The notes: generated by a model not told the origin, from the letters alone. 32,000 nt of DNA from Candidatus Nitrospira inopinata (GCF_001458695.1 NZ_LN885086.1:1530001-1562000), one strand, 5' to 3'. Counted from the first letter of the stretch, positions 575 to 17,271 are shown. Numbers and translations are program-made.

Positions 575-1084
575 GTGCGTGTCGCGGTGCAAGCCGTATT
601 GATTGTCAGCCTGGGGTTACTGGTCTCCTGTAGCGCCGAAGAGGGTGGATTGGGAGACGGACCGATCGTTCCCCCTCCTCCGCCGCCGCCGGAATATGCT
701 GAGAAACATATGCCTGCAGGGTGGTGGAACGACCAGGCCAAAATGGAAGAGGGGCGAAAGATCTACCTGGGTGAGGCGAACCCCGACGTCAATTGCGCCA
801 GTTGTCATGGGAAAGACGGAAAACCGGTCAAGGCTGGCGCGCGCGACTTTCGCAATGTCGAACGGATGAAGCTTGCCTCCGATTCGGTATGGTTTTGGCG
901 CATTGCCGAGGGAGTTCCCAACACGAAGATGAAGGGCTGGAAGAGCAAGCTTTCGGAAGAAGATATGTGGAAGCTGGTGCTCTATGAACGGAGTTTTGCG
1001 TTGTCCGGAAAGGCATGGAGCGACGAGAAAAAGCAGTGGGTTGATGTCGGGAGCATTCCAACGCCCCCAGCCGGTGAGGAATAG
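575..1084 (+). CDS. monohaem c-type cytochrome, lipoprotein
   Basis: GTG start lies 7 nt after AGGAG (563-567). Lipobox-like signal LGLLVSC/SAEE, a poly-Pro linker (PPPPPPP), a single CxxCH (CASCH) and a distal Met region (NTKMKGWKS). Confidence 0.85.
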   Translation: MRVAVQAVLIVSLGLLVSCSAEEGGLGDGPIVPPPPPPPEYAEKHMPAGWWNDQAKMEEGRKIYLGEANPDVNCASCHGKDGKPVKAGARDFRNVERMKLASDSVWFWRIAEGVPNTKMKGWKSKLSEEDMWKLVLYERSFALSGKAWSDEKKQWVDVGSIPTPPAGEE

Positions 1085-1088
1085 GCGC

Positions 1089-1142
1089 GAAGGTCTGAAG
1101 GTCTGGTGGGGCAAAGATTCTTTTGTGTGACCTTTTGTGTGA
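1089..1142. repeat. two perfect short tandem duplications in the 58-nt spacer before bd-like oxidase 1
   Basis: gaaggtct occurs twice back to back (1089-1096, 1097-1104). cttttgtgtga occurs twice, 1 nt apart (1120-1130, 1132-1142), ending directly at ATG 1143. Confidence 0.9.
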
Positions 1143-2867
1143 ATGGGACGTCACGCTATGAACATACGGCTTCGTAATCTCACTGCGATCGTCGTGTTTC
1201 TCGGGCTTGTTTCAGCGGGGCTTTCCGACGTCTATGCGCAAATGCCTGGGGCGGCGGTCGAGTTTCCGTACACGGGGAACCGAACCGCCGTGTGGATTGT
1301 CGCGCAGCTCCATACGCTTCTCGGCGCGTTCATTCTCGGGGCTCCGATGTTCATCGTCATGGCTGAATGGCTTGGACATCGCAAGCAGGATTCCCGGTAT
1401 GATCGCATGGCTCAAGAGATCACAAAGATCACGGTCATTCTTTTCAGCATGACGGCTCTGACCGGCGGACTCTTTATTTTTGTACTTCTGGCCGCCTATC
1501 CCCAGTTCACGACCTGGTTCATCAATCAATTTTATCTTGTGTTCGCCGTGATCTATCCGCTGCTGTTCATCGTCGGGACGATCGTGCTCTACGCATACTT
1601 TTACAGTTGGGACGCCTGGAAAGGAGAGAAAAAAGGGCGTCATATCGCTTTGGGCGTGCTGCTTAATCTGATCTGTCTGGCGACGATGTTCGTGATCAAC
1701 GGCCCGACGTCGTTTATGAATACCCCCGTCAGAAGCGAGGGGGTGTCGCCGATGGAAGCCCTGGCCGCGGCGACCTTGTGGGACAAAATCGCGAACACGA
1801 GCTGGATGCCGCTTAATCTCCATCGCATCGACGGAAACGTCGCGTTTGGGGGGTTTGTGGCGGGCTTGATCGCCGCCTATATGTACATGGGGGCGCAGAA
1901 CAGGGAAGATCGTGCCTATTACGACTGGATGGGTTTTGTTGGAAACCTGATCGCCGTGGGCGCCATGCTTCTTCAGCCCTTTACCGGATTATTGTTGGCC
2001 TACGAGATGTGCGATTATGACTTTTCGTTTTGCCCCTACATGATGGCCGATCAGCTTTCGATGTTTTTCGAGATGCAGGGCGCCGTTGTGGGCGTGATGT
2101 TCCTGGGCTGTAATTATTACGTCTGGCTCAGCCTGCGGCGCATTGAGGGGGTGGAGCAGGTCAGGATGACGGCGTTGGCTCCGCTCATGATGGTCTTGTC
2201 TCCCGTGGTCATGGTCGTCGTCTTCACGGAATATTGGATTCCTGATCCGATGTCGCTCGCGTTCCTGATCCCCTTCGTGCTGAGCCCGTTCATCTTGGGT
2301 CGATTCGTGCCGATGACGGTATCCGTGCAAACGGTGATGAAGATCGGGTTTTTGATGGTCGTTGTGAGCGACGCGCTGTGGGTGATTCCCAACGGATTTG
2401 CGGCGACCGGAGCCAAGATGGCGGAAGACGTTCAATTGCCGGAGGCGTGGGAAGTGCTCGGTAAAATGCCGACCAAGCTCGGCGCTATCTTCTCGCTGGT
2501 ATTCGTTACAGTAATCAATTACATCGTTTATGGCCGGGCCATTCGGCAGGGAACCATCGCGTGGGGCAAGATCGACGGCGTCTCTCAATTTGTCCTTATT
2601 TTTCTGGCGTTCACGTCGATTTGGGCGATGGGATTGATGGGGGCCGTCCGGTCGTTGTTGCGCAAGTTTTTCCACGCCTACAATTTGGTGCCGGATTTTA
2701 CGGCTGAGTCGTTCACGCCGACATTGTCCTATTCCGCTTGGCTGATTACAGGGATCACGGTGTTCTTTTTTATCGTCGTGAGTGTGGCGGTTTTTCTGGC
2801 CCTTCGGTCCGTCGAGGCGAAAGAGCGCGAGCCGCAGGGGGTTCCCGTTCCCGCCGGAAGCAAGTAA
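1143..2867 (+). CDS. cytochrome bd-like oxidase, CydA-related subunit only (paralogue 1)
   Basis: A 574-aa polytopic membrane protein. The N-terminal half carries CydA-like blocks shared with the paralogue at 6867-8714: VWIVAQLHTLLG vs IWIVAQLHLLLAG, LNLHRI vs INIHRL, and EDRAYYDWMGFVGN vs EDREHYDWMGYVGN. The N-terminus is signal-peptide-like. An alternative start is ATG 1158. No cydB-like gene follows. Confidence 0.8.
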   Translation: MGRHAMNIRLRNLTAIVVFLGLVSAGLSDVYAQMPGAAVEFPYTGNRTAVWIVAQLHTLLGAFILGAPMFIVMAEWLGHRKQDSRYDRMAQEITKITVILFSMTALTGGLFIFVLLAAYPQFTTWFINQFYLVFAVIYPLLFIVGTIVLYAYFYSWDAWKGEKKGRHIALGVLLNLICLATMFVINGPTSFMNTPVRSEGVSPMEALAAATLWDKIANTSWMPLNLHRIDGNVAFGGFVAGLIAAYMYMGAQNREDRAYYDWMGFVGNLIAVGAMLLQPFTGLLLAYEMCDYDFSFCPYMMADQLSMFFEMQGAVVGVMFLGCNYYVWLSLRRIEGVEQVRMTALAPLMMVLSPVVMVVVFTEYWIPDPMSLAFLIPFVLSPFILGRFVPMTVSVQTVMKIGFLMVVVSDALWVIPNGFAATGAKMAEDVQLPEAWEVLGKMPTKLGAIFSLVFVTVINYIVYGRAIRQGTIAWGKIDGVSQFVLIFLAFTSIWAMGLMGAVRSLLRKFFHAYNLVPDFTAESFTPTLSYSAWLITGITVFFFIVVSVAVFLALRSVEAKEREPQGVPVPAGSK

Positions 2868-2937
2868 CAATCGGCGCCATCGGGTTGTCGCATCGGCGGG
2901 CGTACGGAGTCGAGTGGGCGTAACCAGGGGAGTCCTT

Positions 2938-3747
2938 ATGGGGAAGGCAATGGTCAAAATCGTTGTCGGCCTGGCGGTCGCCGCCGGTCTCTGGTTCGGG
3001 TCGATGGCGATGGAGTTCCCGCCGGTGTTTCAGGGGCTGTTCGTCGGATTCGCGATCGTCGGTACGTTGATGTTTCTGTTGTTGGACGCACCGCGGACAA
3101 ACGGACCGACCGGATGGCCGGCAGCCGTGTCCGTCGTGGCGTTCTATTTGATTCTCTGTTTCGGGTATGGAGCCACGGCGTCGCTCTGGCCGCAGTTTGA
3201 TCCCGAGGACGAGAGAGAAAAGATCGCCAAGATTCTCGACGGCAAAGAAAACCCGCTTGATCCCTGGAACGCGGCCGAGGTGACCAAGCGAATTCAAGAG
3301 CTCGATGAGAAGGCCAAAATGCTGGCCGAACGGATTCAGGCGTTGGGAGGCGATCAAGCTCCCGTTGTGGCTCAGAAGGCCGTCGCTTCCGCTGCGACTG
3401 CTGTGAGTGCGAGCGCAGATTCCGGTGACCTCATGAAAATAGGGGAAGAGCAGTGGCAGCTCCAGGAGTGTTACAACTGCCACAAGTTGAGAGGCGAGGG
3501 AGGGAAAAAGCGAGGTCCGGAGCTGGATAACATCGGGTCCTACCTGACGGTTGAAGAGATCAAGCAAAAGATCATCGATCCCAAGAGTTTCATGGCCGAG
3601 GGATTTGAAAAAGAGTGGGAGAAGGGGCGAATGCCGGACAAATTCAAGGACGTGATGAGTGACGGAGAAATAACCGCGCTTGCCTCGTGGCTCTATACGT
3701 TTAAGAACACGGCGGTCGCCACGCCGAAACCGATTAAGAAAAAGTGA
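2938..3747 (+). CDS. membrane-anchored monohaem cytochrome c (about 3 N-terminal TM helices, linker, C-terminal cyt c domain)
   Basis: The track ORF 2782-3747 overlaps the upstream gene. Internal ATG 2938 follows GGGGAG (2927-2932) and gives MGKAMVKIVVGLAVAAGLWFG. CxxCH is CYNCH, followed by GPELDNIG ... RMP. Confidence 0.85.
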   Translation: MGKAMVKIVVGLAVAAGLWFGSMAMEFPPVFQGLFVGFAIVGTLMFLLLDAPRTNGPTGWPAAVSVVAFYLILCFGYGATASLWPQFDPEDEREKIAKILDGKENPLDPWNAAEVTKRIQELDEKAKMLAERIQALGGDQAPVVAQKAVASAATAVSASADSGDLMKIGEEQWQLQECYNCHKLRGEGGKKRGPELDNIGSYLTVEEIKQKIIDPKSFMAEGFEKEWEKGRMPDKFKDVMSDGEITALASWLYTFKNTAVATPKPIKKK

Positions 3748-4682
3748 TGTTGCAGCCGAAACTGAAGTCCAAGGTTCGTTGCACGGACCGAGATATTGGT
3801 GAAGTGACGAGGGTCGTTCTGGACCCCATTTCCCACGACATCAGTCATCTTGTGGTGTCGCTGGACGACGGCGTCGAACGGCAGGTCGCCATGGAACACG
3901 TGCGAGCCGTCTTGGAAGGCGTCGTCGAATTGGGGGTATCTTCATCCGAGATCGCGGCTCTCCCGCCCTTCAATCGCGCGGATTACGTCACCACGCACGA
4001 GGTTGAGATCTCGCATCTGGAAGACAATCTCGACGTCGTTCCCGGCGAAGTGCTTGTTCCGCTGCCCGATCTTGAAAAGGACATCAAACGCAGAACCTTC
4101 TTCATGAACTTCACACACGCCGTCGGTCTTCTGATCGGTTTGCCGATGGTCTATCCGGTGCTGCGTTATCTGATGAAGCCGATGTATGCGCCGTTCGACA
4201 ATGGATGGCTGAAGGTCGGAAACGTCGGCAAGATCAAGCAGGACGACATCGGGGTGCAGTTCCAATACAAGAAAACGGTCAAAGAAGCCTATATGCCGGA
4301 AGCCGAGATCGAAAAGTCGGTGTGGATTTTAAAAGCCACCCCTTCGGTGCTCGATCAGATTTATCAAGGCAAGGATCAAGATTTCCGCGACCCGTCCGGG
4401 AAACTCATCTGGACGAACAAAAAAGACGTTCCCTACGTCGCGTTTTCGGGCAAATGCCCTCATCTGGGTTGCGCGTATAAATGGCGGCAACACAAGACTC
4501 TGGGAGAGGTGTTTCTTTGCCCCTGTCACTTGAGCATTTATGATGCGGCGGGGAAAGTGCTTGACGGCCCGGCGCCCAGGCCGCTCGATGCCCTGCCGAT
4601 CAAGGTGGCAGCCAACGGCGACGTGGAAATCATCGACATGGAGTTCAAGGCCGGAGTCAAGTCTCAAATTCGGATCATGTAA
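3744..4682 (+). CDS. Rieske [2Fe-2S] protein with an N-terminal PRC-barrel-like extension
   Basis: GTG 3744 or ATG 3747 overlaps the upstream stop (TGATG). Rieske boxes CPHLGC and CPCHLS are present. A twin-arginine motif KRRTFF plus a TM helix lies at residues ~115-140. Residues ~10-75 (DRDIGEVTRVVLDPISHDISHLVVSLDDG..RQVAMEHV) look like a PRC barrel. Confidence 0.9.
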   Translation: MMLQPKLKSKVRCTDRDIGEVTRVVLDPISHDISHLVVSLDDGVERQVAMEHVRAVLEGVVELGVSSSEIAALPPFNRADYVTTHEVEISHLEDNLDVVPGEVLVPLPDLEKDIKRRTFFMNFTHAVGLLIGLPMVYPVLRYLMKPMYAPFDNGWLKVGNVGKIKQDDIGVQFQYKKTVKEAYMPEAEIEKSVWILKATPSVLDQIYQGKDQDFRDPSGKLIWTNKKDVPYVAFSGKCPHLGCAYKWRQHKTLGEVFLCPCHLSIYDAAGKVLDGPAPRPLDALPIKVAANGDVEIIDMEFKAGVKSQIRIM

Positions 4683-5795
4683 ATGCAGCACCCGTCCGTT
4701 TCCAACGTTCCCTCGACCGCCGTCGAGAAGATCGTCGCGTTTCTCGATCAACGCGTCGGCTTGAAGGAAATTCAAGCCAAGATGCTCAACGAGCCGATCC
4801 CCGGCGGCTCACGGTGGGCCTATGTGTTCGGCTCCATCCTGCTGTTTCTCTTCATCATGCAGGCGATCACCGGCGTGTTGCTGATGTTTTATTACGTCCC
4901 CACGGCGGACCATGCCTATGCCAGCACCCAATACATCATTCACGAGGTGGATTACGGGTGGTTTCTGCTGGGCTATCACTTTTGGGGATCCAGCGCCATG
5001 GCCGTCTGTGTCGTCGCGCACATGTCGCAGGTGTTTCTCTGGGGGGCCTATAAGCCGCCGCGCGAGCTTCTGTGGATCGTCGGGCTGGCGTTGTTCGGCA
5101 TCGTCATCGGATTCGGATTTACCGGGTATTTGTTGCCGTGGGACCAACGGGCCTATTGGGCCACGACGGTGGGAGTCGAAATTCTCGACAAAACGCCGAT
5201 CCTCGGCGATTTCATGGCGCGGTTCCTGAAGGGAGGACCGACGCCGGGCCAACTGACATTGAGCCGGTTTTTCGTCATTCACGTAATGATTCTGCCGGCC
5301 GCGCTCATGGCCTTGGCCGGGTTGCACCTGTACTTGTTTCGAGTGGCCGCCCCGGCCGGTCCGTTCCGGGGAACTCCGGAAGAGATCAAGGCGAAAACCG
5401 ACTACTTTTTCCCCCGGCAAGTGTGGAAGGACATTGTGGGCATGGCCGTCGTCTTCGCCACGATTTGCGGGTTGGCGTTCTGGGAGCCGGTGGTGTTGTT
5501 GGAAGAAGCCACGCCAGATCCGGGCGAGTATCACCCCGAACCGGAATGGTATTTTCTTTTCTACTTCCAACTGCTCAGGCTCAAGATGTTTTCCGGCGAA
5601 TTCGGGCAGTTCATGGGAGCCGTGGCGTTGCCGGTCATTTTTATGGGTCTGCTCGTGGCGCTCCCCTTTTTCGACCGAGATCCGGAACGGAATATTTTCA
5701 AGCGCCCCGTGGCGTTGATCAGTTGGATTGCGATGATGGCGATCATGGCGATTTTCACGGTCTCCGCCGTGATCAACCGAGAGTTTCTAGACTAG
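4683..5795 (+). CDS. cytochrome b (fused b6 + subunit IV type, about 8 TM helices)
   Basis: ATG directly abuts the TAA of the Rieske gene. H-x13-H sits in helix B (YHFWGSSAMAVCVVAH) and H-x14-H in helix D (IHVMILPAALMALAGLH). It also has LLPWDQRAYWATTVG and the Qo-site PEWYF. Confidence 0.95.
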   Translation: MQHPSVSNVPSTAVEKIVAFLDQRVGLKEIQAKMLNEPIPGGSRWAYVFGSILLFLFIMQAITGVLLMFYYVPTADHAYASTQYIIHEVDYGWFLLGYHFWGSSAMAVCVVAHMSQVFLWGAYKPPRELLWIVGLALFGIVIGFGFTGYLLPWDQRAYWATTVGVEILDKTPILGDFMARFLKGGPTPGQLTLSRFFVIHVMILPAALMALAGLHLYLFRVAAPAGPFRGTPEEIKAKTDYFFPRQVWKDIVGMAVVFATICGLAFWEPVVLLEEATPDPGEYHPEPEWYFLFYFQLLRLKMFSGEFGQFMGAVALPVIFMGLLVALPFFDRDPERNIFKRPVALISWIAMMAIMAIFTVSAVINREFLD

Positions 5796-5830
5796 ATTAG
5801 GAGCGGCGCGGCGGCGCCGACGGATGACCA

Positions 5831-6820
5831 ATGGCCGGCGAGCGAGACTCTTTGTCGCCAACACAGATAGGAATCGGAGTGCTCTGGCCTACCTGTTGGA
5901 CAGGGCTTCCCATCAAGCTGCCGTTGGCCGTGATCGCCTTGGCCGTCGGCTTGATGCACCTGGAGGCCCGGCTGGGGCTGGCCTTTTTGATGTTGCTCGC
6001 CAGTCCGGTGACGGTCTTTGCCGTGCCGATCATTTCTCTCGCACTGGATGGAAATTTCGGTGAAGGGATCGGGTTGCCGCTGCTCCTCTTTCTCTCTATT
6101 CCAATCGATATCTGGGCGTTCGGAGTCGTCGGTCAAACGTTTTTTCTCGAGCGACTCAGAAAGGAGCCTCCTCCGAGACTGGGATTCACTCTCTGGTGGA
6201 AATCTTCGGTCGTCGGCGCCTTCTTTCTGCCGATCCTTTGGGTGGTGGTCGGCTCGGTCACGGAAACAGCGATGTCGACGTCTCATTCCTTGGCACAAAT
6301 GGAAAGTCTCCGGCATCTGTTCCATACCGGACTTCCGGTAGCCGAACGGATCGGGCTCGAGGTCACGATCTGGGGCACCATCGCGTTCGGAGTTTTAATG
6401 GTTCTGTTGACCATCGGAGTCTCAACCATCGGCCGCATAATCCGCGACATTGCCGCCGACGCGTCGCCGGCCTCCGGCACCTATCAGGCGCTGATTACGC
6501 GATGGGATTTGATGCGCGTGCCTCGTGATCAGGGGCTGTTCGCTACGACGGTCGTGGGAGTGGGACTCGTCTTTTGCATCCTGTTCTGGGTCGTCCTGCC
6601 GGTGACGACGCCGCATCCTCACGAATGTTGCCCCAAGCCGGAGGTCGTGGTCCATCGGCCGTTCAAACCGATGGAGACTCTGGCGCGCGATGAGCAACAG
6701 ATAGAGAACCTGATCGCCCAAGTCGAGGCGTTGGAAGAGAAGAAGGCGGGCGAGGCGGTTGTCAAGGAAAAGGGCGGGGCCAAGGCCGAACACAAGACCG
6801 GAGCAAAAGCCGACGATTGA
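5831..6820 (+). CDS. hypothetical 6-TM membrane protein with an HPHECC motif and a charged coiled-coil tail
   Basis: Six hydrophobic segments by eye, same strand, lying between cyt b and bd-like 2. The C-terminal tail reads TTPHPHECCPKPE ... EQQIENLIAQVEALEEKKAGE. The start is uncertain because ATG 5831 has no good SD. Confidence 0.6.
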   Translation: MAGERDSLSPTQIGIGVLWPTCWTGLPIKLPLAVIALAVGLMHLEARLGLAFLMLLASPVTVFAVPIISLALDGNFGEGIGLPLLLFLSIPIDIWAFGVVGQTFFLERLRKEPPPRLGFTLWWKSSVVGAFFLPILWVVVGSVTETAMSTSHSLAQMESLRHLFHTGLPVAERIGLEVTIWGTIAFGVLMVLLTIGVSTIGRIIRDIAADASPASGTYQALITRWDLMRVPRDQGLFATTVVGVGLVFCILFWVVLPVTTPHPHECCPKPEVVVHRPFKPMETLARDEQQIENLIAQVEALEEKKAGEAVVKEKGGAKAEHKTGAKADD

Positions 6821-6866
6821 TCCGCCCTCGGCAAACCGTAACGTGCGAGGTGAAGAGGTGAGCTTC

Positions 6867-8714
6867 ATGCGCCATGGGGAAAGAATGATTCAACGAGCGA
6901 TCCGTAGCGGAGGCGCTCACGCGGGATGGCTCACGGGCCTGTTGCTCATGGCGGGCTGGCTGGCTCTGCCCGCCGTCGGTTTCGCGGCCGAGGGAACCGC
7001 GGCCGGTCCGACGGAGTATCGGGATATTCCGTACATCGGCAGCAGGAATCTGATTTGGATTGTCGCGCAGCTCCATCTGCTGCTGGCGGGGTTCGTCTTG
7101 GGGGTCCCGATTTTTGCCTGGCTCTGCGAGATTATCGCGTGGAAAGGGGGAGAGCAGCGGTACGACAAGCTGGCCAAGGAGTTTACCAAGCTGCTCACGT
7201 CCGCCTACGCCACCACCGCCCTGTTCGGCGGGATTTTGCTGTTCCTGCTCATCGTTTTCTATCCCAAGCTCATGAACTATCTGACGGACATTTTCTTTCC
7301 GTCCTTCCTTGTGTACTGTCTTCTGTTCTTGTTTGAGACCGCGACGCTGTACCTCTATTGGTATGGGTGGGACGCGATGCAGCATGGCGGCAAGAAGACC
7401 TTGCACATCTTCCTCGGCTTTCTCCTGAACTTTTTTGCCATCTTCATCATGATCGTCCCCAATGCCTGGGCGACGTTCCAATCAAGCCCGGTTGTGATCT
7501 CCGAAGGCACGGCCATCGAACGGGCATGGGCCGCCACCTGGAACCCGACCTGGTGGCCGATCAACATCCACCGGCTCATCGCCAACGTCGTGCTCGGCGG
7601 CTACATTTGCGGCGCGTACGCCGGCGTTCGCTATTTGTCGGCCAAAAGCGCAGAAGACCGCGAACATTACGATTGGATGGGGTACGTCGGCAACTTTATC
7701 GGCGTGTTCGGTCTCTTGGCCCTGCCGTTCGCCGGGTACTGGCTGATGCGCGAGATCTATCAATACAACCAGCAGATGGGCATTACGTTGATGGGGGGCT
7801 TTCTCTCCTGGCTCTTTATCATCCAGGCGATGTTGATCGGAGTCCTCTTTTTGGGTTCCAACTACTATTTCTGGCTGGGGATTACCTATCGGATTCCCGG
7901 GTCGGAGAGCAAATATCGAAAGCCCATTCTCTGGATGTTGGTCAGCTTGTTGTTGTGTCTCGCCGTGTGGATGACGCCCCACTCGCTGGTGGCCAGCATT
8001 GAAGAAGCTCAAAAAATGGGGGGTGCGCACCATCCGCTGCTCGGCGTTCTCGGCGTCATGTCAGCCAAAATGACGGTGTCGAACCTCATGATTCTCATCA
8101 CGTTCATGAGTTTCGTCATGTACTGGCGGGCGGGAAAACAAGACGCGGCTCCATGGGCGAAACTGGCCAAGGCGGTCATGGGCGCCGTGTTGGTCTTGGC
8201 CAGCCTTGCCGTCATCGTGCTCGGCGTGTGGGGATATTTCGTGCCGGCGATCGTCCGGATCAACTATTTCTCCACCTCTCAGGTGCTGATCGTCATTTTC
8301 GTGATCCTGACGATCACGCCCTTGACGGCCCTGTTGCTGAAGAGCGCCAAAACGACGACGGAGATGGTCTGGGGTAGGATGCCCCCGCGGGCCGGATACG
8401 CCTTGGTGTTGAACGCCATCATGGTTATCTTGCTGATGGCGTTGATGGGCTATGCGCGGTCCTCGTCTCGCGTCCATTGGCACGTGTATGGGGTGATGCG
8501 CGATACGTCTCCCTATGCGTACTCGCCCGCTCTCGGCAGCGCTTCGCTGATCATGGCCTTCTGCACGTTTTTCTTCTGCCTGCTCGTGGCGTTTATCTTC
8601 TGGGTCGCCACGATGGGCGACAAGGCCAAGGGCGCTCAGGGAACGGTGAAAAAGGAGCTGCCCCATGGCATTCCGGCTATTGCCGGAGGGGCGCCGGATC
8701 GCGGGCAACCGTGA
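6867..8714 (+). CDS. cytochrome bd-like oxidase, CydA-related subunit only (paralogue 2)
   Basis: The track ORF 6759-8714 overlaps the upstream gene. ATG 6867 (after GAAGAGG) or ATG 6885 is a more plausible start. It has the same conserved blocks as paralogue 1, plus an extra His cluster in the C-terminal half (TPH, AHH at 8028-8033, HWH at 8475-8483). Confidence 0.8.
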   Translation: MRHGERMIQRAIRSGGAHAGWLTGLLLMAGWLALPAVGFAAEGTAAGPTEYRDIPYIGSRNLIWIVAQLHLLLAGFVLGVPIFAWLCEIIAWKGGEQRYDKLAKEFTKLLTSAYATTALFGGILLFLLIVFYPKLMNYLTDIFFPSFLVYCLLFLFETATLYLYWYGWDAMQHGGKKTLHIFLGFLLNFFAIFIMIVPNAWATFQSSPVVISEGTAIERAWAATWNPTWWPINIHRLIANVVLGGYICGAYAGVRYLSAKSAEDREHYDWMGYVGNFIGVFGLLALPFAGYWLMREIYQYNQQMGITLMGGFLSWLFIIQAMLIGVLFLGSNYYFWLGITYRIPGSESKYRKPILWMLVSLLLCLAVWMTPHSLVASIEEAQKMGGAHHPLLGVLGVMSAKMTVSNLMILITFMSFVMYWRAGKQDAAPWAKLAKAVMGAVLVLASLAVIVLGVWGYFVPAIVRINYFSTSQVLIVIFVILTITPLTALLLKSAKTTTEMVWGRMPPRAGYALVLNAIMVILLMALMGYARSSSRVHWHVYGVMRDTSPYAYSPALGSASLIMAFCTFFFCLLVAFIFWVATMGDKAKGAQGTVKKELPHGIPAIAGGAPDRGQP

Positions 8715-8716
8715 CG

Positions 8717-8744
8717 CTCCGTCCGCAAACGGGGGCGTACGGAG
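8717..8744 (+). other. intercistronic stem-loop immediately after the bd-like 2 stop codon
   Basis: ctccgtccgc / gcgtacggag forms 9 of 10 pairs around loop aaacgggg. It starts 3 nt after TGA 8712-8714 and has no U-tract. Confidence 0.4.
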
Positions 8745-8801
8745 GGAAGACTGTCGTCGTGAGAACGAGTCGTTCATGCCATTCGACGGGGAAGGGGCGT
8801 T

Positions 8802-9425
8802 ATGAGTGAACTTGCGCAGCTTCAGTTGATCGCGCTCGCGATCGTCCTCTTTGGAATCCTGATTCTTCTCTTCATCAAATCGAACTTCTTTCGAGTGACA
8901 GGGTTCGTCTCCATCGTGCTGGGGCTGTTTTCGCTGATGTCTCTCGCGGTGCCGCAGATGGCGTCTCTTCCCCCGGCTGATGAAACCATCGACATCGCCA
9001 GCATCAAGACGCCGACCGACATCGCGGCGCTGGGGCAAACGATTTTTTTCAGCAAGGGGCAATGCGCGCTGTGCCATTCCATCGGGCCCAGCGAGTCGGC
9101 CCGTTGTCCGGACTTAAAGGGGATCGGCGCCAAGTTGACCAAGGCGTTTCTGTATGAAAGTCTGACGGACCCTCAAGCCTTCATCTATCAAGATTACCGG
9201 CATGGAGGGGTGCCGAAAGAATATCCGGCGACGATGCCGAGCATCGACAAAGATCCGATCGGCTTATCGAAGAATGAAATCTTGGCCGTGATCGCGTTTC
9301 TTCAACAAATGAGCGGAGAGCCGATCTCCGTCAGTCCGTCGGAACTTGAAATACCGGGTCAGGGACCGCCCGCTTCGGTCGCCGTCGCAGGGTCCGCTCC
9401 GTTGGCCGTCGCGCAGGCGCAATAG
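8802..9425 (+). CDS. membrane-anchored monohaem cytochrome c (2 N-terminal TM helices)
   Basis: SD GGGGAAGGGG precedes the ATG. It has CALCH, and its cyt c domain is collinear with that of 2938-3747 (C..CH...GP.L..IG ... DP ... MP ... EI.A...(F/W)L). Confidence 0.85.
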   Translation: MSELAQLQLIALAIVLFGILILLFIKSNFFRVTGFVSIVLGLFSLMSLAVPQMASLPPADETIDIASIKTPTDIAALGQTIFFSKGQCALCHSIGPSESARCPDLKGIGAKLTKAFLYESLTDPQAFIYQDYRHGGVPKEYPATMPSIDKDPIGLSKNEILAVIAFLQQMSGEPISVSPSELEIPGQGPPASVAVAGSAPLAVAQAQ

Positions 9426-9440
9426 GCAGAGGGGGAAATC

Positions 9441-10160
9441 ATGGGGCATTCGTTGGTCAGGCCGATTATCATCATGGGAGTCATGTACGCGGTGCTCAAG
9501 TTTGTGCTGCCGAACATCCCGGGGTCCGCGGCGCTTCCATCCAGCCTCATTCTGCTGTATCTGCTGCTGACGTTGTCAGGGATCATCATTTTCGAAACCG
9601 TAAGCGCCGAGTCCAAGGACGCCTTCTGGGGGCCGATGCAGAAATTTTTGACAGGAGACAACATCGGCGGGTTGAAGCCGTTTCGATACGGGATTCTCAT
9701 TTTCTTTCCTCTTCTGGTCGGATGGCAGACGTACAATGCGACGGCTCCGAGCGGTCAGCCTCCCGCCGAAAGCCGAGTGATTCATCCCGCCCCGCCGGGC
9801 GAATACACCGGGCTGGCGAATCCGGTTCCCAGGACCCCGGAAAACATCATGCAAGGCAAAGGGTTCTATGCGGCGTTTTGCTCGCCTTGCCATGGCGCGA
9901 ATTTCGACGGGAAAGGGCCGGCGGCCCGGGGATACAATCCTCCGCCGGCCAATTTTGCCGACCCCACGACCATTGCGATGTTGCAGGAAAGCTATCTGTT
10001 CTGGCGCATCAAAAAGGGCGGGGTCGGGCTCCCGATCGAAGGAATGCCGTGGAAGTCGGCGATGCCGCGTTGGGAGCTTGAGTTGCCGGATGAATGGATC
10101 TGGAAAATCATCATGGGCGAATACGACGGTGCGCATCAGTCTCCGCGCACGTGGGAATAG
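9441..10160 (+). CDS. membrane-anchored monohaem cytochrome c (3 N-terminal TM helices)
   Basis: SD GAGGGGGA precedes the ATG. It has CSPCHGANFDGKG, and LFWRIKKG..GMPWKSAMP resembles WFWRIAEG..KMKGWKS of the 575-1084 protein. Confidence 0.85.
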   Translation: MGHSLVRPIIIMGVMYAVLKFVLPNIPGSAALPSSLILLYLLLTLSGIIIFETVSAESKDAFWGPMQKFLTGDNIGGLKPFRYGILIFFPLLVGWQTYNATAPSGQPPAESRVIHPAPPGEYTGLANPVPRTPENIMQGKGFYAAFCSPCHGANFDGKGPAARGYNPPPANFADPTTIAMLQESYLFWRIKKGGVGLPIEGMPWKSAMPRWELELPDEWIWKIIMGEYDGAHQSPRTWE

Positions 10161-10175
10161 CGAGAGGGGGAGCCG

Positions 10176-11045
10176 ATGTCGCCCGGATCGCCGTGGGGAA
10201 ACGAGGCCAGCATGAATCCCGTGAAGTTGACGGCTCAATGGAGCGCATATGTGAAGGGGGTCCTGATCGCGGCCCTGATCGTGGGGGGAGGGACGGACGG
10301 CTTGGCGCAGGAAAGCGTGGCGGTTCGCGCGTCCCTTGTCTCGGGCGCCTTGCCTGTCGATGATCCGAACGCAGCGGCTTGGAACAGCGCCGCGCCGGCC
10401 GTCTTTCCGATGTCGCCGCAAGTCCATTGGCCGGACCGCATTCAGGAAGTGACCGTGCAGGACCTGACCGTGCGCGCCTTGCACGACGGGACGCAAGTGG
10501 CGTTTCTCTTGGAATATGACGATCCCACGGAGGATCCTGACGACGCGGCGGCGATTGAATTCATGGTCGGAGATAAGAAAGCGCATTTTGCGCACGGTCA
10601 GCCGATGCTCTTGGTGGACGGCGGGCCCGTCAACATCTGGTTCTGGAAGCACAAAGACAATAAAGGCGTAGATATGTGGGCCAAGGGGTTCGGCACCCTC
10701 CGGCCGCACTCGCATCAAGACGTGACAGCCAAGGGCGAATACGCGAACGGGAAATGGAGAGTCGTGTTTTCCCGGTCGCTGGTGACCGAGCATCCGGATG
10801 AGGATATGCAGGTCACGCCCGGCGAGTTCATCAATATCGCCTTTGCGGTCTGGGATGGAAGAAAAGACGCCACGGGGCAGCTCATTGAAAAGGGATCGCA
10901 AAAAGCCGTGTCGTCATGGTGGTATTTTCGGGCGGAACCGCCTCCTGATTATTCCGGATACCTGTACGCGGGCGTGGCCGCCGTGTTGGCGTTGGGGTTT
11001 CAGTTCGTTCTGATCCGTAAACTCAAGGAAGGGCAGTCAGCATGA
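10176..11045 (+). CDS. EB_dh-domain haem-b protein (gamma subunit of type II DMSO-reductase-family enzymes, NxrC-like) with a C-terminal TM anchor
   Basis: It has a signal-like N-terminus. AAWNSAAP..MSPQ...VTVRALHDGTQVAFLLEYDDPTED..AAAIEF...NIWFWK...GKWRVVFSRSL...INIAFAVWDG matches my memory of the ethylbenzene-dehydrogenase gamma/NxrC fold family. The C-terminal helix is LYAGVAAVLALGFQFVLI. Confidence 0.75.
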   Translation: MSPGSPWGNEASMNPVKLTAQWSAYVKGVLIAALIVGGGTDGLAQESVAVRASLVSGALPVDDPNAAAWNSAAPAVFPMSPQVHWPDRIQEVTVQDLTVRALHDGTQVAFLLEYDDPTEDPDDAAAIEFMVGDKKAHFAHGQPMLLVDGGPVNIWFWKHKDNKGVDMWAKGFGTLRPHSHQDVTAKGEYANGKWRVVFSRSLVTEHPDEDMQVTPGEFINIAFAVWDGRKDATGQLIEKGSQKAVSSWWYFRAEPPPDYSGYLYAGVAAVLALGFQFVLIRKLKEGQSA

Positions 11046-12067
11046 GAAGGGCGAGGCTGCAAGCCGCAAAAACAGTGGTCGGCCTGTGCGGAGTGGTGGC
11101 GCTGCTTACGGGTGGGTGCGCGAGCGAGCAGGAAAAAAAGGGGCGCGAATTGTACACCCATTACTGCAGCGATTGTCACGGCGAAAGCGGCAGGCAGAAC
11201 GAAGGATTCAATTGGTCGGCCATGCCGGATCCCAAGCCCAAGGATCTTTCCAATAAAAGCGAGATGAGCACCTTCAAAGACGAGGAGCTGTTTGCCACGA
11301 TTTCACGCGATATGTTGGATACGAGCGAAGAGGGAGGCGATGAGATCGGGGACGACGATTTCGCCGTTCCGACGATGCCGACCTTCAAGTATACGTTGTC
11401 CGAAGAAGAAATCTGGGCGATCGTCGGCCATGTGCGCACGTTGCACGGGATGAAGCTGGAGTTCGACGTGGCGGCCCGCAAGCGATCTCTCGAAGAGGGC
11501 TTGAAAGCCGCACAGGCGAAATTCGAGCAAGCAAAACTGGCCTACGAGGAAGCAGAACGAAAAGCCAACGAAGAGGCGGAACGAAAGAGCCAGGAACTCA
11601 ATCAAGACGTCGACGTCGACGAGTCCGCTTACGCCGACGAGCTGGCTGCGATGACAGAGGCCAAGAAAGAGCTGGAGGCGGCTCAGGCAGCCCTGAACAA
11701 CTTCACGACGAGGCCTGGAAAGGGGCAGAGCGTTCCCAGGCCGGACCTCACGACGCCGCCGGCGGAAACTGCGCAATTGGTCGAGCGCGGAAAGCGGCTG
11801 TATGAAAACAAGTATGGATGTAACGGCTGTCATAGCCTTGCCGGTGAGGGGGGGAAAATCGGTCCTCCCTTGGACCGTGCAGGATTCAGGCTGAATCCCA
11901 CTTGGATCTATCGTTGGCTCAAGAATCCCCAGGCCATGGATTCGGCGACGCGAATGCCCGCATTGGGCCTGAGCGACGCGGATGCCAAAGCCGTGACGTT
12001 CTATTTGGAAACCTTGCAGGCGCCGAAGGCTGCGCCTCAAGAGGAAAGACCGGTCGAAACCCCGTGA
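11042..12067 (+). CDS. dihaem c-type cytochrome lipoprotein with a central Ala/Glu/Lys coiled-coil linker
   Basis: An ATGA overlap joins it to the upstream gene. Lipobox LLTGGC, two CxxCH motifs (CSDCH, CNGCH), and the linker KAAQAKFEQAKLAYEEAERKANEEAERK. Confidence 0.85.
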   Translation: MRRARLQAAKTVVGLCGVVALLTGGCASEQEKKGRELYTHYCSDCHGESGRQNEGFNWSAMPDPKPKDLSNKSEMSTFKDEELFATISRDMLDTSEEGGDEIGDDDFAVPTMPTFKYTLSEEEIWAIVGHVRTLHGMKLEFDVAARKRSLEEGLKAAQAKFEQAKLAYEEAERKANEEAERKSQELNQDVDVDESAYADELAAMTEAKKELEAAQAALNNFTTRPGKGQSVPRPDLTTPPAETAQLVERGKRLYENKYGCNGCHSLAGEGGKIGPPLDRAGFRLNPTWIYRWLKNPQAMDSATRMPALGLSDADAKAVTFYLETLQAPKAAPQEERPVETP

Positions 12068-12136: not shown

Positions 12137-12164
12137 ATGAGACGGGCTTGGTCTCGTTCTTTCT
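12137..12164. terminator. weak hairpin between convergent genes (dihaem cyt c and ubiA)
   Basis: The stem is gagac/gtctc, extendable to about 7 bp with a G-U pair, around loop gggcttg. It is followed by gttctttct. Confidence 0.25.
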
Positions 12165-12174
12165 GGATGACGAG

Positions 12175-13065
12175 TCAGCCGATGAATCCAGCCAACAGGC
12201 CGGCCAACACGGCTGCTCCCACCCATGTATGGGCGCGAAACATGCCGAACGCCACGGCGGGCTCGATCGGTTTTCTCAACTGCACGGTTTGCAAGAAGAG
12301 GAAGAGCCCTACGCCCAGTAACGCGACATAGTAGGGCCAGCGAATCTGGACCAGCCATCCGGCTAAGCCCAGCAGCAATATCATCAGGCAATAGGCGACG
12401 CCGACTCCCAGGGGGAGCAATCGCCCGAAAAAGATGGCCGACGATTTCACGCCGATTCGCCGGTCATCGTCCCGATCCTGAATCGCATAAATCGTATCGT
12501 ACGCGACGGCCCATGCGGCCGTCGCTCCAAACAGACACCAGACCGGCGCGTCAAGTTGTCCACGGACTGCCGCCCATGCCATGATGGTTCCCCAGCCGAA
12601 GGCAAGGCCCAACACGGCTTGGGGAATCTGAATCCACCGTTTTGCAAAGGGATACAGAGACGCCAAGGCGAACGCTCCGGGCGCCAACCACGTGACGACA
12701 GGATCGAGCAGCCAGAGGAGGCTTCCCGCCATGAGCAAGAGCACGCTCAGCAGAGCGAGCGCGTGACGTCGGGACAGTTCTCCGGAGGCGAGAGGACGGG
12801 TCTTGGTTCTGACAACCTGCCGATCGAACGACTGATCGGCCAGGTCGTTGAGAATGACCCCGGCGCTTCGCATGAGAAACGATCCCGCGATGAATATCGC
12901 CACGAGAGGGGGCGGCGGCACTCCTTCCGTCGCGAGCACCAGCGACCACAGCGTCGGCAGCATTAAGAGATAGGTTCCCGTCTGATTCGGTAAGCGGATC
13001 AGACGGATCAAGGCGGACCATGGAAGGCCGGAGGCTTCGACAGTCGGAGAGGGCGTTGACGGCAT
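12175..13065 (-). CDS. ubiA: 4-hydroxybenzoate polyprenyltransferase (UbiA)
   Basis: It is collinear by eye with E. coli UbiA: LPTLWSLVLA, the first Asp-rich motif NDLADQSFD, QAVLGLAFGWG, and the second motif YDTIYAIQDRDDDRRIGVKSSAIFFG. Confidence 0.9.
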   Translation of the reverse strand: MPSTPSPTVEASGLPWSALIRLIRLPNQTGTYLLMLPTLWSLVLATEGVPPPPLVAIFIAGSFLMRSAGVILNDLADQSFDRQVVRTKTRPLASGELSRRHALALLSVLLLMAGSLLWLLDPVVTWLAPGAFALASLYPFAKRWIQIPQAVLGLAFGWGTIMAWAAVRGQLDAPVWCLFGATAAWAVAYDTIYAIQDRDDDRRIGVKSSAIFFGRLLPLGVGVAYCLMILLLGLAGWLVQIRWPYYVALLGVGLFLFLQTVQLRKPIEPAVAFGMFRAHTWVGAAVLAGLLAGFIG

Positions 13066-15308: not shown

Positions 15309-15384
15309 GCCGGCGTAGCTCAGTCGGTAGAGCAGCGGTTTCGTAAACCGCAGGTCGCCCGTTCAATCCGGGTCGCCGGCTCCA
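15309..15384 (+). tRNA. tRNA-Thr (anticodon CGU), CCA encoded
   Basis: The cloverleaf was folded by hand. Acceptor GCCGGCG/CGCCGGC, D arm GCTC-AGTCGGTA-GAGC, anticodon arm GCGGT-TTCGTAA-ACCGC, variable loop AGGTC, T arm GCCCG-TTCAATC-CGGGT, then T-CCA. Confidence 0.95.
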
Positions 15385-15695
15385 TGCCATACGTATCCCG
15401 ACCCGTCGCCTTTCGATGCTCTTGGCTTCTGCTGTCTTTCCTCATACAGCCGTTAACCGATAATCTCCGCGTTCGATTGCTTTGATCCGTATCTGCGAGC
15501 CGTATTGTGTCGCATCATGCCTCTTACGCGCGAGTCTCGGCTGATCGGGAGAGACCACCTCCAAATGACGTCTGACATCTCACTGACGATCCGATCATCC
15601 CCTCCTTTTGAAGTACTCCTTTGGGGTCTGGCGCAGATCGGCGCGACTGTTAGGCTTTAAGCCAGAATCGACGCACTTCTGAAAGGAGATTCACC

Positions 15696-15935
15696 ATGAC
15701 CTGCTCTCGATGTGAAGGCTTGATGTTGGAGGAGTATCTGTTTGATCTGGACGGAGGCTGTGCAGAGAGATGGGCAACGTCCTGGCGCTGCGTGAATTGC
15801 GGTCAGAGGGATGATGCCGTCATTCGGCAGCACCGCCGAGCCAAGCCGGCGGTCGTCGCTCCCGCGGCTTGCATGGTGCCGGAGATGACGCGCCTGCCGC
15901 GCGAATTCGACAATCTCGAACGATTCGCGGCCTGA
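15696..15935 (+). CDS. small zinc-ribbon protein (two CxxC pairs), hypothetical
   Basis: A strong SD AAGGAG lies 7 nt before the ATG. The sequence is MTCSRCEGLM...WRCVNCGQ, and a strong hairpin follows it. Confidence 0.6.
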   Translation: MTCSRCEGLMLEEYLFDLDGGCAERWATSWRCVNCGQRDDAVIRQHRRAKPAVVAPAACMVPEMTRLPREFDNLERFAA

Positions 15936-15971
15936 GAGCGGATTCAGGCGGATTCGGAAGGAGGGGCAACA

Positions 15972-16008
15972 GCCTTTCCGGAGCCGTCGGGGAGACGGCT
16001 CCGGAAAG
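15972..16008. terminator. perfect 16-bp GC-rich hairpin between convergent genes
   Basis: cctttccggagccgtc - gggga - gacggctccggaaagg, with no flanking U-tract. A second hairpin ggcatc-aaccc-gatgcc sits at 16011-16027. Confidence 0.55.
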
Positions 16009-16034
16009 GACGGCATCAACCGATGCCTTGTGAT

Positions 16035-16080
16035 GTGAGGGAACGATGCAAATCGGCGCCCCCGCCGTTTGCTCCCTCAC
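16035..16080 (-). terminator. long imperfect hairpin overlapping the stop of the 39-aa ORF
   Basis: The arms gtgaggga...tccctcac enclose inner pairings gcaaa/tttgc and cggc/gccg, about 17 bp in total. Confidence 0.4.
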
Positions 16081-16196: not shown

Positions 16197-16359
16197 CTTC
16201 CTCACCTCCTTCGGCCGACATTCCATCCGAGAGAACGCAAGATCTTCTTTCTCGGCTGACTCAGGCTCATGTGGAAAATATATCGAGGCCCCTTTTATCG
16301 TGCCATCACCCGAAGGATGGAATTGATATACACCGTTCGGGTGAGAACGCGACCAAGGG

Positions 16360-17037: not shown

Positions 17038-17055
17038 CAAGCGCTCATCACGGAC

Positions 17056-17229: not shown

Positions 17230-17271
17230 AAATCACCCCCTCGCGTCCGAATGACGCGAGTCCTTTTCGTG

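Follow-up and report, generated by a model that had tools for sequence, protein, structure and literature searches.

A complete example of the conserved Nitrospirales respiratory gene cluster in Candidatus Nitrospira inopinata, probably assembled from two evolutionary modules

Our study examined a 32-kb stretch of DNA from Candidatus Nitrospira inopinata (the window), in which positions 575–12067 hold eleven tightly packed ORFs on the plus strand, all of which were confirmed. These genes (g1–g11) and their convergent downstream neighbour are as follows:

575..1084, + strand: g1, monohaem cytochrome c (Pfam Cytochrome_CBB3 and Cytochrom_C)
1143..2867, + strand: g2, cytochrome bd-like protein of the OR-N1 type, bd-like_1 (Cyt_bd_oxida_I, 68.6 bits)
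2938..3747, + strand: g3, membrane-anchored monohaem cytochrome c (Pfam Cytochrom_C; CYNCH)
3747..4682, + strand: g4, Rieske [2Fe-2S] protein (Pfam Rieske, 35.9 bits against a cutoff of 20.3; NCBIfam Rieske_proteo/PetC)
4683..5795, + strand: g5, cytochrome b (Cytochrome_B, 159 bits, and Cytochrom_B_C)
5831..6820, + strand: g6, conserved hypothetical protein (about six TM helices, charged tail at the C terminus; no family in Pfam or NCBIfam)
6867..8714, + strand: g7, cytochrome bd-like protein of the OR-N2 type, NIDE0901-like, bd-like_2, putative O2-reducing subunit (Cyt_bd_oxida_I, 66.0 bits)
8802..9425, + strand: g8, membrane-anchored monohaem cytochrome c (Pfam Cytochrom_C)
9441..10160, + strand: g9, membrane-anchored monohaem cytochrome c (Pfam Cytochrome_CBB3 and Cytochrom_C; two TM helices)
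10176..11045, + strand: g10, NxrC/EbdC-like periplasmic haem b protein of the alt_NxrC_1 type (Pfam EB_dh, 83.8 bits against a cutoff of 33.3)
11042..12067, + strand: g11, dihaem cytochrome c with a lipoprotein-like signal (two Cytochrom_C/CBB3 stretches)
12175..13065, − strand: UbiA-family 4-hydroxybenzoate polyprenyltransferase, a convergent neighbour and not a subunit (Pfam UbiA, 195 bits)

The cluster encodes one Rieske protein, one cytochrome b of the b6 type, a pair of CydA-like paralogues, five cytochromes c, one EB_dh/NxrC-like protein and one membrane protein without a family, and Pfam and NCBIfam profiles backed every domain assignment between 575 and 12067. Exactly six CxxCH motifs are present, spread 1+1+1+1+2 over the five cytochromes c, whose Pfam domains lie at 575–1084, 2938–3747, 8802–9425, 9441–10160 and 11042–12067. 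The initial annotation had listed a Rieske/cytochrome b complex, bd-like proteins, an NxrC-like (EB_dh) protein and six c haems, and running the profiles that it named (Cyt_bd_oxida_I, EB_dh, Rieske, Cytochrome_B/Cytochrom_B_C and Cytochrom_C) supported all of these assignments. Its description of eleven packed same-strand genes was exact, including the junctions TGATG (3745–3749), TAAATG (4680–4685) and ATGA (11042–11045); with the most plausible starts (ATG 2938 for g3, ATG 3747 for g4 and ATG 6867 for g7), spacing ranged from a 4-nt overlap to 87 nt. It had also reported no cydB, haem-copper oxidase or NxrA/B, and none of these was matched in a profile scan of most of the larger ORFs of the window. 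Similarly, no COX1-type subunit I family was matched in g1–g11 or the other scanned ORFs of the window, and no CydB was found next to either CydA-like gene when all ORFs of the locus were searched with Pfam and NCBIfam. All five cytochromes c and g10 carry TM anchors or lipobox-like signals, as judged from hydropathy and N-termini, and this tethering of all c haems and the NxrC-like protein would fit a membrane-bound electron wire. The downstream UbiA-family gene (NCBIfam TIGR01474, 282.1 bits against a cutoff of 275.45) recurs in 55 related loci, likewise on the strand opposite to the cluster.

The two CydA-like proteins, g2 and g7, are paralogues that align over their full length (32 % identity, E 2e-73). 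They had been annotated as two CydA-only bd-like oxidases; the CydA-like part of that description stands, but counting two oxidases is probably a misreading of a pair of OR-N1/OR-N2 paralogues. The Cyt_bd_oxida_I match is limited to profile positions 3–240 (g2) and 3–242 (g7) of 418, alignments of CydA chains from the PDB to g7 span only residues 55–293, and no close relative of g7 was found in the PDB. Canonical CydA was rejected as an identity for either protein, the Q-loop and the C-terminal Met393-ligand helices being uncovered by the matches. Since both proteins are without the CydA Q-loop region, cytochrome bd function is not transferable to them. They share only the first CydA helices, have no quinol site and contain about 14 TM helices, as is characteristic of OR-N proteins, a family in which the absence of CydB is usual. 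For g2 approximately 13–14 helices were counted (about 13 by hydropathy), and for g7 DSSP assigned about 14 long helices in an AF2 model whose pLDDT of 52.0 was too poor for fold or site geometry. The ORF of g7 is open from 6759, and the start at ATG 6867 agrees with homologues of 615 aa.

Following the naming scheme of Murali et al. (2021), g2 is classed as OR-N1 and g7 as OR-N2 on the basis of residue pattern and of orthology to the NIDE0901-like protein, including synteny with Ca. N. defluvii, where the gene near 877.6 kb encodes a protein 83 % identical to g7. At the equivalents of H19, E99, E107, H126 and H186 (the columns of Table S6 of Murali et al.), g2 has H57, Y138, G145, H167 and H227, matching the OR-N1 row (H52, Y133, G140, H162 and H222) with a constant offset, and g7 has H70, Y150, E157, H180 and H235, matching the OR-N2 row (H99, Y183, E190, H213 and H269). 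The His19/His186 equivalents (H70/H235 in g7, H57/H227 in g2) are invariant among orthologues. The E107-equivalent Glu is retained in 76/78 OR-N2 orthologues; this position is Gly in g2 and in 5/52 of its orthologues, and Glu in the other 47. The gene contexts agree with the classification, as g2 is followed by a cytochrome c (g3), a Rieske protein (g4) and a b6 plus subunit IV protein (g5), and g7 by g8, g9, the EB_dh protein g10 and g11. In the supplement of Murali et al., the typical partners of OR-N1 are petA/B/D and those of OR-N2 are several cytochromes c and an EbdC homologue, and the two proteins are treated as parts of two different modules.

Among 78 orthologues of g7, H70, H180, H235, H372, H388, H389, H537 and H539 are invariant. 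Positions H372, H388, H389 and H537 are occupied by residues other than His in at least 25 of 27 aligned g2-type or other paralogues; in total, five His positions were counted as invariant in OR-N2 and missing from OR-N1, g2 included. The proposal of a terminal oxidase rests on these extra histidines, which occur in OR-N2 only. Proposed copper and haem b binding sites are among the features that Lucker et al. (2010) describe for the NIDE0901-like protein; that the OR-N2-specific histidines may form these sites is our own suggestion. The electron donor to g7 is probably a cytochrome c and not quinol. No report of the purification, activity or structure of any OR-N protein was found in the literature searched.

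Between the two CydA-like genes lies the Rieske/cytochrome b block. The ORF of g3 is open from 2782, with a likely start at ATG 2938 or 2950 and about three N-terminal TM helices, and its product is a candidate for the c subunit of the complex. The start of g4 overlaps the stop of g3 (TGATG); g4 contains both cluster-binding boxes (CPHLGC and CPCH), one TM helix and an extra N-terminal domain of approximately 110 aa that is weakly PRC-barrel-like (PRC E=0.021, below cutoff). The N-terminal part of g5 is b6-like and continues in the same chain into a C-terminal part resembling subunit IV (NCBIfam cytochrome b6, 204 bits, plus cytb6_f_IV), and two His pairs, His99/His113 and His200/His215, show b6-type spacing. 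No family match to a dedicated cytochrome c1 or f was obtained, and only generic monohaem Cytochrom_C proteins (g3 and g1) were seen. The remaining gene of the block, g6, had no family match even at E<=10, CydB included. Among 1135 scored homologues of g6, the best 120 carry no Pfam domain and, where named, bear almost only 'hypothetical protein' and Nitrospira labels. It occupies the same position in 65 loci with a median identity of 48 %, is the fastest-evolving gene of the cluster and is confined to Nitrospirales-type loci. H264 of g6 is invariant, CC266/267 is found in only 35/63, and the AF2 model (pLDDT 63.5) was too poor for testing the fold.

The other cytochromes c are encoded outside this block. 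A lipoprotein-like signal (LLVSC) and CASCH at residue 74 were identified in g1. Downstream of g7 lies g8; the protein P0121 matches g7 in its N-terminal part (60 % identity) and carries a C-terminal extension that aligns with g8 (44 % identity, E 1e-42), and g7 and g8 form one ORF in four Troglogloeales-type genomes (L072, L076, L078 and L079). This fusion suggests that g8 is likely to be the direct electron-entry partner of g7. The next gene, g9, always comes after g8, Manganitrophaceae-type loci included. The dihaem protein g11, the start of which overlaps the stop of g10 (ATGA), has CSDCH at residue 42, CNGCH at residue 260 and a charged coiled linker between its two c domains.

The haem b protein g10 has a signal peptide and a C-terminal TM anchor (helix 262–280). 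In the PDB it best matches subunit C of Kuenenia NXR (7b04_C, 1.3e-15) and EbdC (2ivf_C, 5.9e-14), and against DMSO_red_II_gam (TIGR03477) it scored 105.2 bits, below the cutoff of 169.85. In a short pairwise alignment, His137 of g10 aligns to the 'AMF' of EbdC; this histidine is present in 66/72 orthologues and a candidate Lys243 in 65/72. The axial ligands of the haem b of EbdC are Met and Lys. No alpha or beta subunit gene adjoins g10, and no NxrA/B was found among the scanned ORFs of the window. The equivalent of g10 was classed as an 'alternative' NxrC by Mundinger et al. (2019, PMC6606698).

Synteny was surveyed in 80 retrieved related genome loci, as the initial annotation had proposed for Nitrospirota. 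All eleven genes were found in order in 45/80, and an order-consistent sub-run, as far as contigs reach, in 73/80; clustering of g1–g11 in the same order in 73/80 is not chance. This synteny is strictly conserved across Nitrospirales. In Manganitrophaceae, the g7–g10 block is present without the Rieske/cytochrome b/OR-N1 block, and loci of the Troglogloeales/Manganitrophaceae carry it by itself, in some cases as tandem copies, g7 being immediately preceded there by g11-like and g1-like genes; in Manganitrophaceae-type loci the g1-like gene (37–41 % identity) is directly upstream of the OR-N2 gene. From approximately seven distant loci, on which this modular reading is based, the OR-N1/bc block appears to be nested inside an OR-N2/cytochrome c/NxrC-like module in Nitrospirales. 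Among closer relatives, one cluster protein is 92 % identical to a Nitrospira MAG protein, the MAGs L001 and L068 show protein identities of 98–99 % and a nucleotide identity of ~93 %, and nucleotide identity to the MAGs JZ-4_Bin198 and W63 is ~93 %. The locus is already known as a conserved Nitrospira cluster described between 2010 and 2019 (Lucker et al. 2010; Mundinger et al. 2019). The initial annotation was right that its composition is not described biochemically, but both the locus and the supercomplex idea had been published in that period. Our study makes three modest additions: the OR-N2-specific histidines, the g7–g8 fusion and the nested module layout.

Taken together, we consider it highly probable that g1–g11 form a conserved core respiratory cluster of Nitrospirales in which two evolutionary modules are kept as one co-expressed block. 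One module (g1 and g7–g11) would be a putative terminal oxidase branch. Electrons from a periplasmic nitrite oxidoreductase would enter via the NxrC-like g10 and the tethered c haems and then pass via g8 into OR-N2 (g7), reducing O2 at a site that may be built from the first four CydA helices and the OR-N2-specific histidine cluster. The other module (g2–g6) would provide the link between these c haems and the quinone pool, oxidizing quinol in the forward direction and, on nitrite, running backwards as pmf-driven reverse electron flow. Docking of NXR by g10 is speculative, because NxrAB is encoded elsewhere and the most expressed NxrC of N. moscoviensis is a different, soluble paralogue (PMC6606698).

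A single supercomplex was the view of the initial annotation, and a CIII–CIV–NXR supercomplex had already been proposed by Mundinger et al. (2019, PMC6606698). In its obligate form, all eleven products would make one stable CIII–CIV particle that docks soluble NXR via g10 and partitions nitrite electrons between O2 and the quinone pool inside one machine. This view draws on the strict retention of the complete eleven-gene order in Nitrospirales, on the placement of the OR-N1/bc block between g1 and g7, which are adjacent genes in Manganitrophaceae-type loci, on the membrane tethering of every redox carrier, and on uniform high transcription of the N. moscoviensis orthologues, at 691–1166 RPKM (Mundinger et al. 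2019, PMC6606698). However, the oxidase module occurs in Manganitrophaceae genomes without the quinone module, separate complexes are often encoded by conserved operons, the gaps of 46–87 nt flanking g7 permit internal regulation, and no physical evidence was found in the literature searched. One co-regulated unit is plausible, but a single obligate eleven-subunit complex is unproven because the g7–g10 block stands alone in Manganitrophaceae, and we regard it as possible but unlikely.

An alternative put forward for most Nitrospirales (PMC12342949) reads OR-N1 and OR-N2 as one CydAA'-type heterodimer, with g2 and g7 as the large subunits of one oxidase, g2 being CydB-like, and the Rieske/cytochrome b genes as an ordinary neighbouring complex III. 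Full-length paralogy of g2 and g7 is as held for CydA/CydB or CydA/CydA', both genes are present in every sufficiently long Nitrospirales locus, and g2 has Gly where g7 has the E107-equivalent Glu. Against this, four other genes separate g2 from g7, and Manganitrophaceae-type loci have OR-N2 without an adjacent OR-N1. Furthermore, most g2 orthologues keep the Glu, and therefore the 'degenerate partner' signature is not general; we find the heterodimer doubtful, if tenable.

A more specific extension of the two-module reading, to which we give a low probability, would make OR-N2 a cytochrome-c-oxidising O2 reductase with a His-ligated copper/haem site on a bd scaffold, fed by g8 as a dedicated, tethered cytochrome c that some lineages have fused to it. 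Insertion of the OR-N1/bc block in Nitrospirales would have created one NXR-docking (g10) machine, in which part of the nitrite electrons go to O2 and part to pmf-driven reduction of quinone. A copper/haem O2-reductase machine of this kind is already a published hypothesis; its proof would be new, as would the nested-module origin and the fusion evidence. That the bd-like proteins are not oxygen reductases and another enzyme reduces O2, as raised for a related Nitrospina protein (Lucker et al. 2013), is improbable: the missing quinol-binding Q-loop, the canonical bd or cbb3 oxidases that many Nitrospirales also carry (PMC12342949) and a related bd-like/alt-NxrC cluster conserved in anaerobic anammox bacteria point that way, but N. 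lenta and Ca. N. nitrosa have no other oxygen reductase (PMC12342949), the His19/His186 equivalents and the E107-equivalent Glu are retained as given above, and the anammox cluster is a different paralogue, bd-like_3 with alt_NxrC_2 (PMC6606698).

Among nitrite oxidizers, Nitrospira dominate in soils, waters and wastewater plants, yet a conventional oxygen reductase is missing from some of the species in culture. The enzyme encoded by g1–g11 is the leading candidate for their O2 respiration and may also drive electrons uphill for CO2 fixation, and proof of its composition and chemistry would answer a question dating from 2010 and establish oxygen reductases of a new class. The present locus re-identifies a published cluster, and its value is that of a clean, complete example, from which three small experimental leads emerge: the joining of g7 with g8, the cluster of histidines particular to OR-N2, and the nesting of one module in the other.

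In comparison with known systems, the cluster is closest to the NIDE0901 region of Ca. N. defluvii, which has an identical eleven-gene order and orientation and protein identities of 47–83 %, and to NITMOv2_0732–0740 of N. moscoviensis, in which the relative spacing of locus tags matches and a PRC-barrel is also annotated in the Rieske protein. In N. moscoviensis, tags 0732, 0734, 0735, 0737 and 0740 correspond to bd-like_1, the Rieske protein with PRC-barrel, cytochrome b, bd-like_2 ('CIV') and alt_NxrC_1 (PMC6606698). No structural difference from these two loci was seen, and the present cluster comes from another Nitrospira species. The OR-N1 and OR-N2 subfamilies (Murali, Gennis and Hemp 2021) are alike in residues, in having about 14 TM helices and in operon contexts, although here the two contexts are joined in one block. 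TO_1 of Ca. Manganitrophus (bd-like clade I), described as a bd-like protein with two cytochromes c and a cytochrome b in the periplasm, its expression lying at the 98th percentile (Yu et al., bioRxiv 10.1101/2021.11.15.468770), is equivalent to g7–g10 with an OR-N2 identity of ~60 %. However, it is without the OR-N1/Rieske/cytochrome b/g6 block, in some cases its OR-N2 and the first cytochrome c make up one fused protein, the cluster is sometimes tandem, and the donor would be Mn(II) rather than nitrite. With canonical CydAB(X) (E. coli, Geobacillus 5DOQ and Mycobacterium 9R2G), g2 and g7 share homologous N-terminal helices with the His19, His186 and E107 equivalents, yet the Q-loop/quinol site and a CydB partner are missing, the TM helices number about five more, and OR-N2 has additional invariant histidines. 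Finally, cytochrome b6f and the Bacillus-type bc complex share the Rieske boxes, the b6-type His spacing and the subunit-IV-like part, whereas here b6 and subunit IV are fused in one protein of 370 aa (g5), a TM-anchored monohaem c (g3) lies upstream in place of cytochrome f/c1, and the Rieske protein g4 carries its extra N-terminal domain.

Between positions 575 and 12067 the window carries eleven ORFs, all on the plus strand, and our analysis upheld the same-strand locus with overlaps and tiny gaps that the initial annotation had described, including its junction strings TGATG (3745-3749), TAAATG (4680-4685) and ATGA (11042-11045), all of which were exact. Starts were chosen as the most plausible (g3, ATG 2938; g4, ATG 3747; g7, ATG 6867, the last agreeing with 615-aa homologues at 100% coverage), and with these the intergenic spacing from g1 to g11 lay between a 4-nt overlap and 87 nt. 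Pfam and NCBIfam backed every bd-like, EB_dh, Rieske, cytochrome b and cytochrome c assignment made previously, as follows.

g2, 1143-2867 (+), Cyt_bd_oxida_I (OR-N1 type)
g4 (+), Rieske protein
g5 (+), cytochrome b, b6-like in its N-terminal part and subunit-IV-like in its C-terminal part
g6, 5831-6820 (+), membrane protein without a Pfam or NCBIfam family
g7, 6867-8714 (+), Cyt_bd_oxida_I (OR-N2 type)
g10 (+), EB_dh/DMSO-reductase-gamma protein (NxrC/EbdC-like)
g1, g3, g8, g9 and g11 (+), cytochrome c domains, two of them in g11

Exactly six CxxCH motifs were counted in the cluster, matching the six c-haems annotated earlier, and CydB, a haem-copper oxidase and NxrA/B, which had been noted as absent, found no match among the other larger window ORFs scanned. 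A TM anchor or a lipobox-like signal is present in each of the five cytochromes c and in the NxrC-like protein, and no soluble carrier is encoded within the cluster. In the Rieske protein g4 (3747-4130, plus strand) the N-terminal ~110 aa form an extra, presumably cytoplasmic domain before the TM helix, to which a PRC-barrel profile gave a weak match below the cutoff (E=0.021). A promoter and terminator scan inside the cluster yielded nothing useful, the many terminator-like matches sitting within T-rich membrane-protein coding sequence; one hairpin (12137-12157) lies 3' of the last gene, g11.

Conservation of the gene order among relatives, one of the checks named in the initial annotation, was borne out by mapping the eleven proteins with tblastn onto 80 loci, which came from scanning one genome for each GTDB species. 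All eleven genes were found in window order in 45 of the 80 loci, and a contiguous, order-consistent sub-run, bounded only by contig ends, in 73/80; Ca. Nitrospira defluvii (FP929003, ~877.6 kb) is among the loci keeping the order. Median protein identity across loci was highest for cytochrome b (81%) and g7 (80%) and lowest for g6 (48%); g7 reached 92% identity to a Nitrospira MAG protein and its best 120 of 6345 scored homologues were all at least 76% identical. Two Nitrospira MAGs (L001 and L068) matched the window at ~93% nucleotide identity over 18.6 kb. Convergent with the cluster lies a gene for a UbiA-family 4-hydroxybenzoate polyprenyltransferase (12175-13065, minus strand; TIGR01474, 282.1 bits against a cutoff of 275.45), in the same position in 55 related loci. 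The retention of a quinone-biosynthesis gene beside quinone-linked respiratory genes hints at a quinone of the ubiquinone type.

Other features were recorded further along the window.

13171-15231 (+), 686-aa ORF with a weak CARDB match (E 1e-4) and a caspase match of the EACC1-associated type (E 1e-6, far below cutoff)
15309-15384, tRNA-Thr(CGT), following that ORF
16426-17277 (+), 17272-18255 (-) and 17779-18534 (+), the longer ORFs of the region 15400-19000 after the tRNA
22599-25364 (+), P-type cation-transporting ATPase of 921 aa with Cation_ATPase_N and _C domains
26846-27979 (+), HtrA-like trypsin/PDZ protease
28068-29831 (+), proteasomal AAA ATPase with OB domains, Mpa/ARC type
29925-31451 (+), Pup-ligase family protein (559 bits)

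The last two (28068-31451, plus strand) are genes of a Pup-proteasome system. The only match of the Rfam scan was a tRNA, and no Pfam or NCBIfam family matched the longer ORFs of 15400-19000. This region is collinear with L001 and L068 at ~90% nucleotide identity and is therefore not a strain-specific island.

The two bd-like proteins, g2 and g7, align as paralogues along their full length (32% identity, E 2e-73), each containing some 13-14 hydrophobic helices. Homology to true CydA was confined to their N-terminal part (positions 3-240 of the 418 in the Pfam profile), with PDB CydA matches to 9R2G and 5DOQ at E ~1e-5 to 1e-4. These proteins have been classified as OR-N1 and OR-N2, with 14 TM helices and no quinol site, the part in common with CydA being the first four helices (Murali, Gennis and Hemp 2021), and our residue mapping is consistent with Table S6 of that study.

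Residues of g7 and g2 aligned to E. coli CydA
His19: g7 H70, g2 H57
Glu99: g7 Y150, g2 Y138
Glu107: g7 E157, g2 G145
His126: g7 H180, g2 H167
His186: g7 H235, g2 H227

Eight histidines (H70, H180, H235, H372, H388, H389, H537 and H539) were invariant in 78/78 aligned OR-N2 orthologues, 10 of them of Manganitrophaceae type. At the positions of H372, H388, H389 and H537, His was absent from at least 25 of 27 aligned g2-type or other paralogue sequences, an alignment pattern that fits the published idea of an extra metal site present only in the NIDE0901-like protein. That g2 is a degenerate 'b-type' partner without the proton-channel Glu was rejected as a general explanation, as residue 145, Gly in the window, is Glu in 47/52 orthologues and Gly in 5/52; Table S6 likewise gives the Ca. 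N. inopinata OR-N1 with Gly at this position (Murali et al. 2021). An AF2 model of g7, built from 24 sequences that were mostly >76% identical, was of low confidence (mean pLDDT 52.0).

Gene fusions bear on how the subunits are partnered. P0121, a g7 homologue of 807 aa, is 60% identical to g7 in its N-terminal part and ends in an extension (TM helix plus cytochrome c) with 44% identity to g8 (E 1e-42). Four Troglogloeales/Manganitrophaceae-type loci join OR-N2 and a g8-like protein in one continuous ORF (782-853 aa, one CxxCH).

L072, 2663-5017 (copy 1), fused OR-N2/cytochrome c
L076, 5700-8048, fused OR-N2/cytochrome c
L078, 3447-6008, fused OR-N2/cytochrome c
L079, 9863-12313, fused OR-N2/cytochrome c

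These fusions argue that g8 would be a physical partner of OR-N2 and its electron entry point. Furthermore, the Troglogloeales/Manganitrophaceae loci keep g11-like, g1-like, g7, g8, g9 and g10 genes, with g1-like genes immediately upstream of g7, and lack g2-g6; the module is sometimes in tandem, with three copies in L072. Most simply read, the block of OR-N1, cytochrome c, Rieske protein, cytochrome b and g6 would in Nitrospirales be nested within an older OR-N2 module. Because that module stands alone in Manganitrophaceae and g7-g8 fusions occur, we favour its being self-sufficient. The cluster may encode two complexes, g2-g6 and g1 with g7-g11.

The nearest relatives of g10 are Kuenenia NXR subunit C and EbdC. 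Its His137 (66/72 orthologues) aligns, in a tentative mapping, to the methionine of the EbdC 'AMF' motif, which we take to be the haem b axial ligand, and haem ligation and redox potential could thus differ in this alternative NxrC. No Pfam domain occurs in the best 120 homologues of g6, nearly all of whose labels read 'hypothetical protein' or Nitrospira. We rejected g6 as a concealed CydB or metal chaperone, with no family match even at E<=10. Directly after the last of its 6 TM helices (residues 257-267) lies the motif TTPHPHECC, for which the positive-inside rule predicts a periplasmic location; 63/63 orthologues conserve H264, 57/63 H262 and only 35/63 both Cys. The motif may be a metal site or of no significance. 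The AF2 model of g6 (30-sequence alignment) was also of low confidence (mean pLDDT 63.5).

From the established bioenergetics of nitrite oxidisers and cited proposals, we mostly infer the following mechanism. Periplasmic NXR would pass nitrite electrons to an NxrC-type haem b protein and on to tethered c haems, and from these to OR-N2, where O2 would be reduced. The Rieske/b6-type complex would join the same c-haem pool to quinone and, during lithoautotrophic growth, would run in reverse, driven by the proton-motive force. Besides the two complexes, the products may form one 11-subunit supercomplex. That the genes in Nitrospirales are nested, strictly conserved in arrangement and evenly transcribed is compatible with a higher-order assembly. 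An OR-N1/OR-N2 heterodimer beside an ordinary complex III may also be envisaged.

The single supercomplex of the initial annotation is partly supported, but it had been anticipated in print in 2010, 2019, 2021 and 2025. The locus is already known and our finding adds no new object, while the underlying biochemical question is important. Our literature search found no purification, complexome, cryo-EM or structure study of a Nitrospira bd-like complex, and no close relative was found in the PDB. OR-N1 typically neighbours petA/B/D, and OR-N2 several cytochromes c together with an EbdC homologue (Murali et al. 2021 supplement). The NIDE0901-like OR-N2, with OR-N1, is considered the likely terminal oxidase in most Nitrospirales genomes, its O2 affinity being stated as unknown (2025 comparative study, PMC12342949). 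In Manganitrophaceae, TO_1 comprises a bd-like protein and two cytochromes c as well as a periplasmic cytochrome b, and has the highest expression among the organism's four bd-like terminal-oxidase clusters (bioRxiv 10.1101/2021.11.15.468770).

In N. moscoviensis the same region contains CIII_1 (Rieske and cytochrome b), bd-like_1, bd-like_2, alt_nxrC_1 and several cytochromes c, and was termed consistently highly expressed; a CIII-CIV supercomplex was explicitly proposed, which might dock soluble NXR via the alternative gamma subunit (Mundinger et al. 2019, PMC6606698). Lucker et al. 2010 is cited there for bd-like_2 as the putative complex IV.

N. moscoviensis counterparts of window genes (Mundinger et al. 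2019 supplementary table)
NITMOv2_0732, bd-like_1, RPKM 1166, g2
NITMOv2_0734, Rieske 'modulated with PRC-barrel', RPKM 935, g4
NITMOv2_0735, cytochrome b, RPKM 691, g5
NITMOv2_0737, bd-like_2, RPKM 815, g7
NITMOv2_0740, alt_NxrC_1, RPKM 725, g10

The spacing of these N. moscoviensis locus tags matches the gene order of the window.
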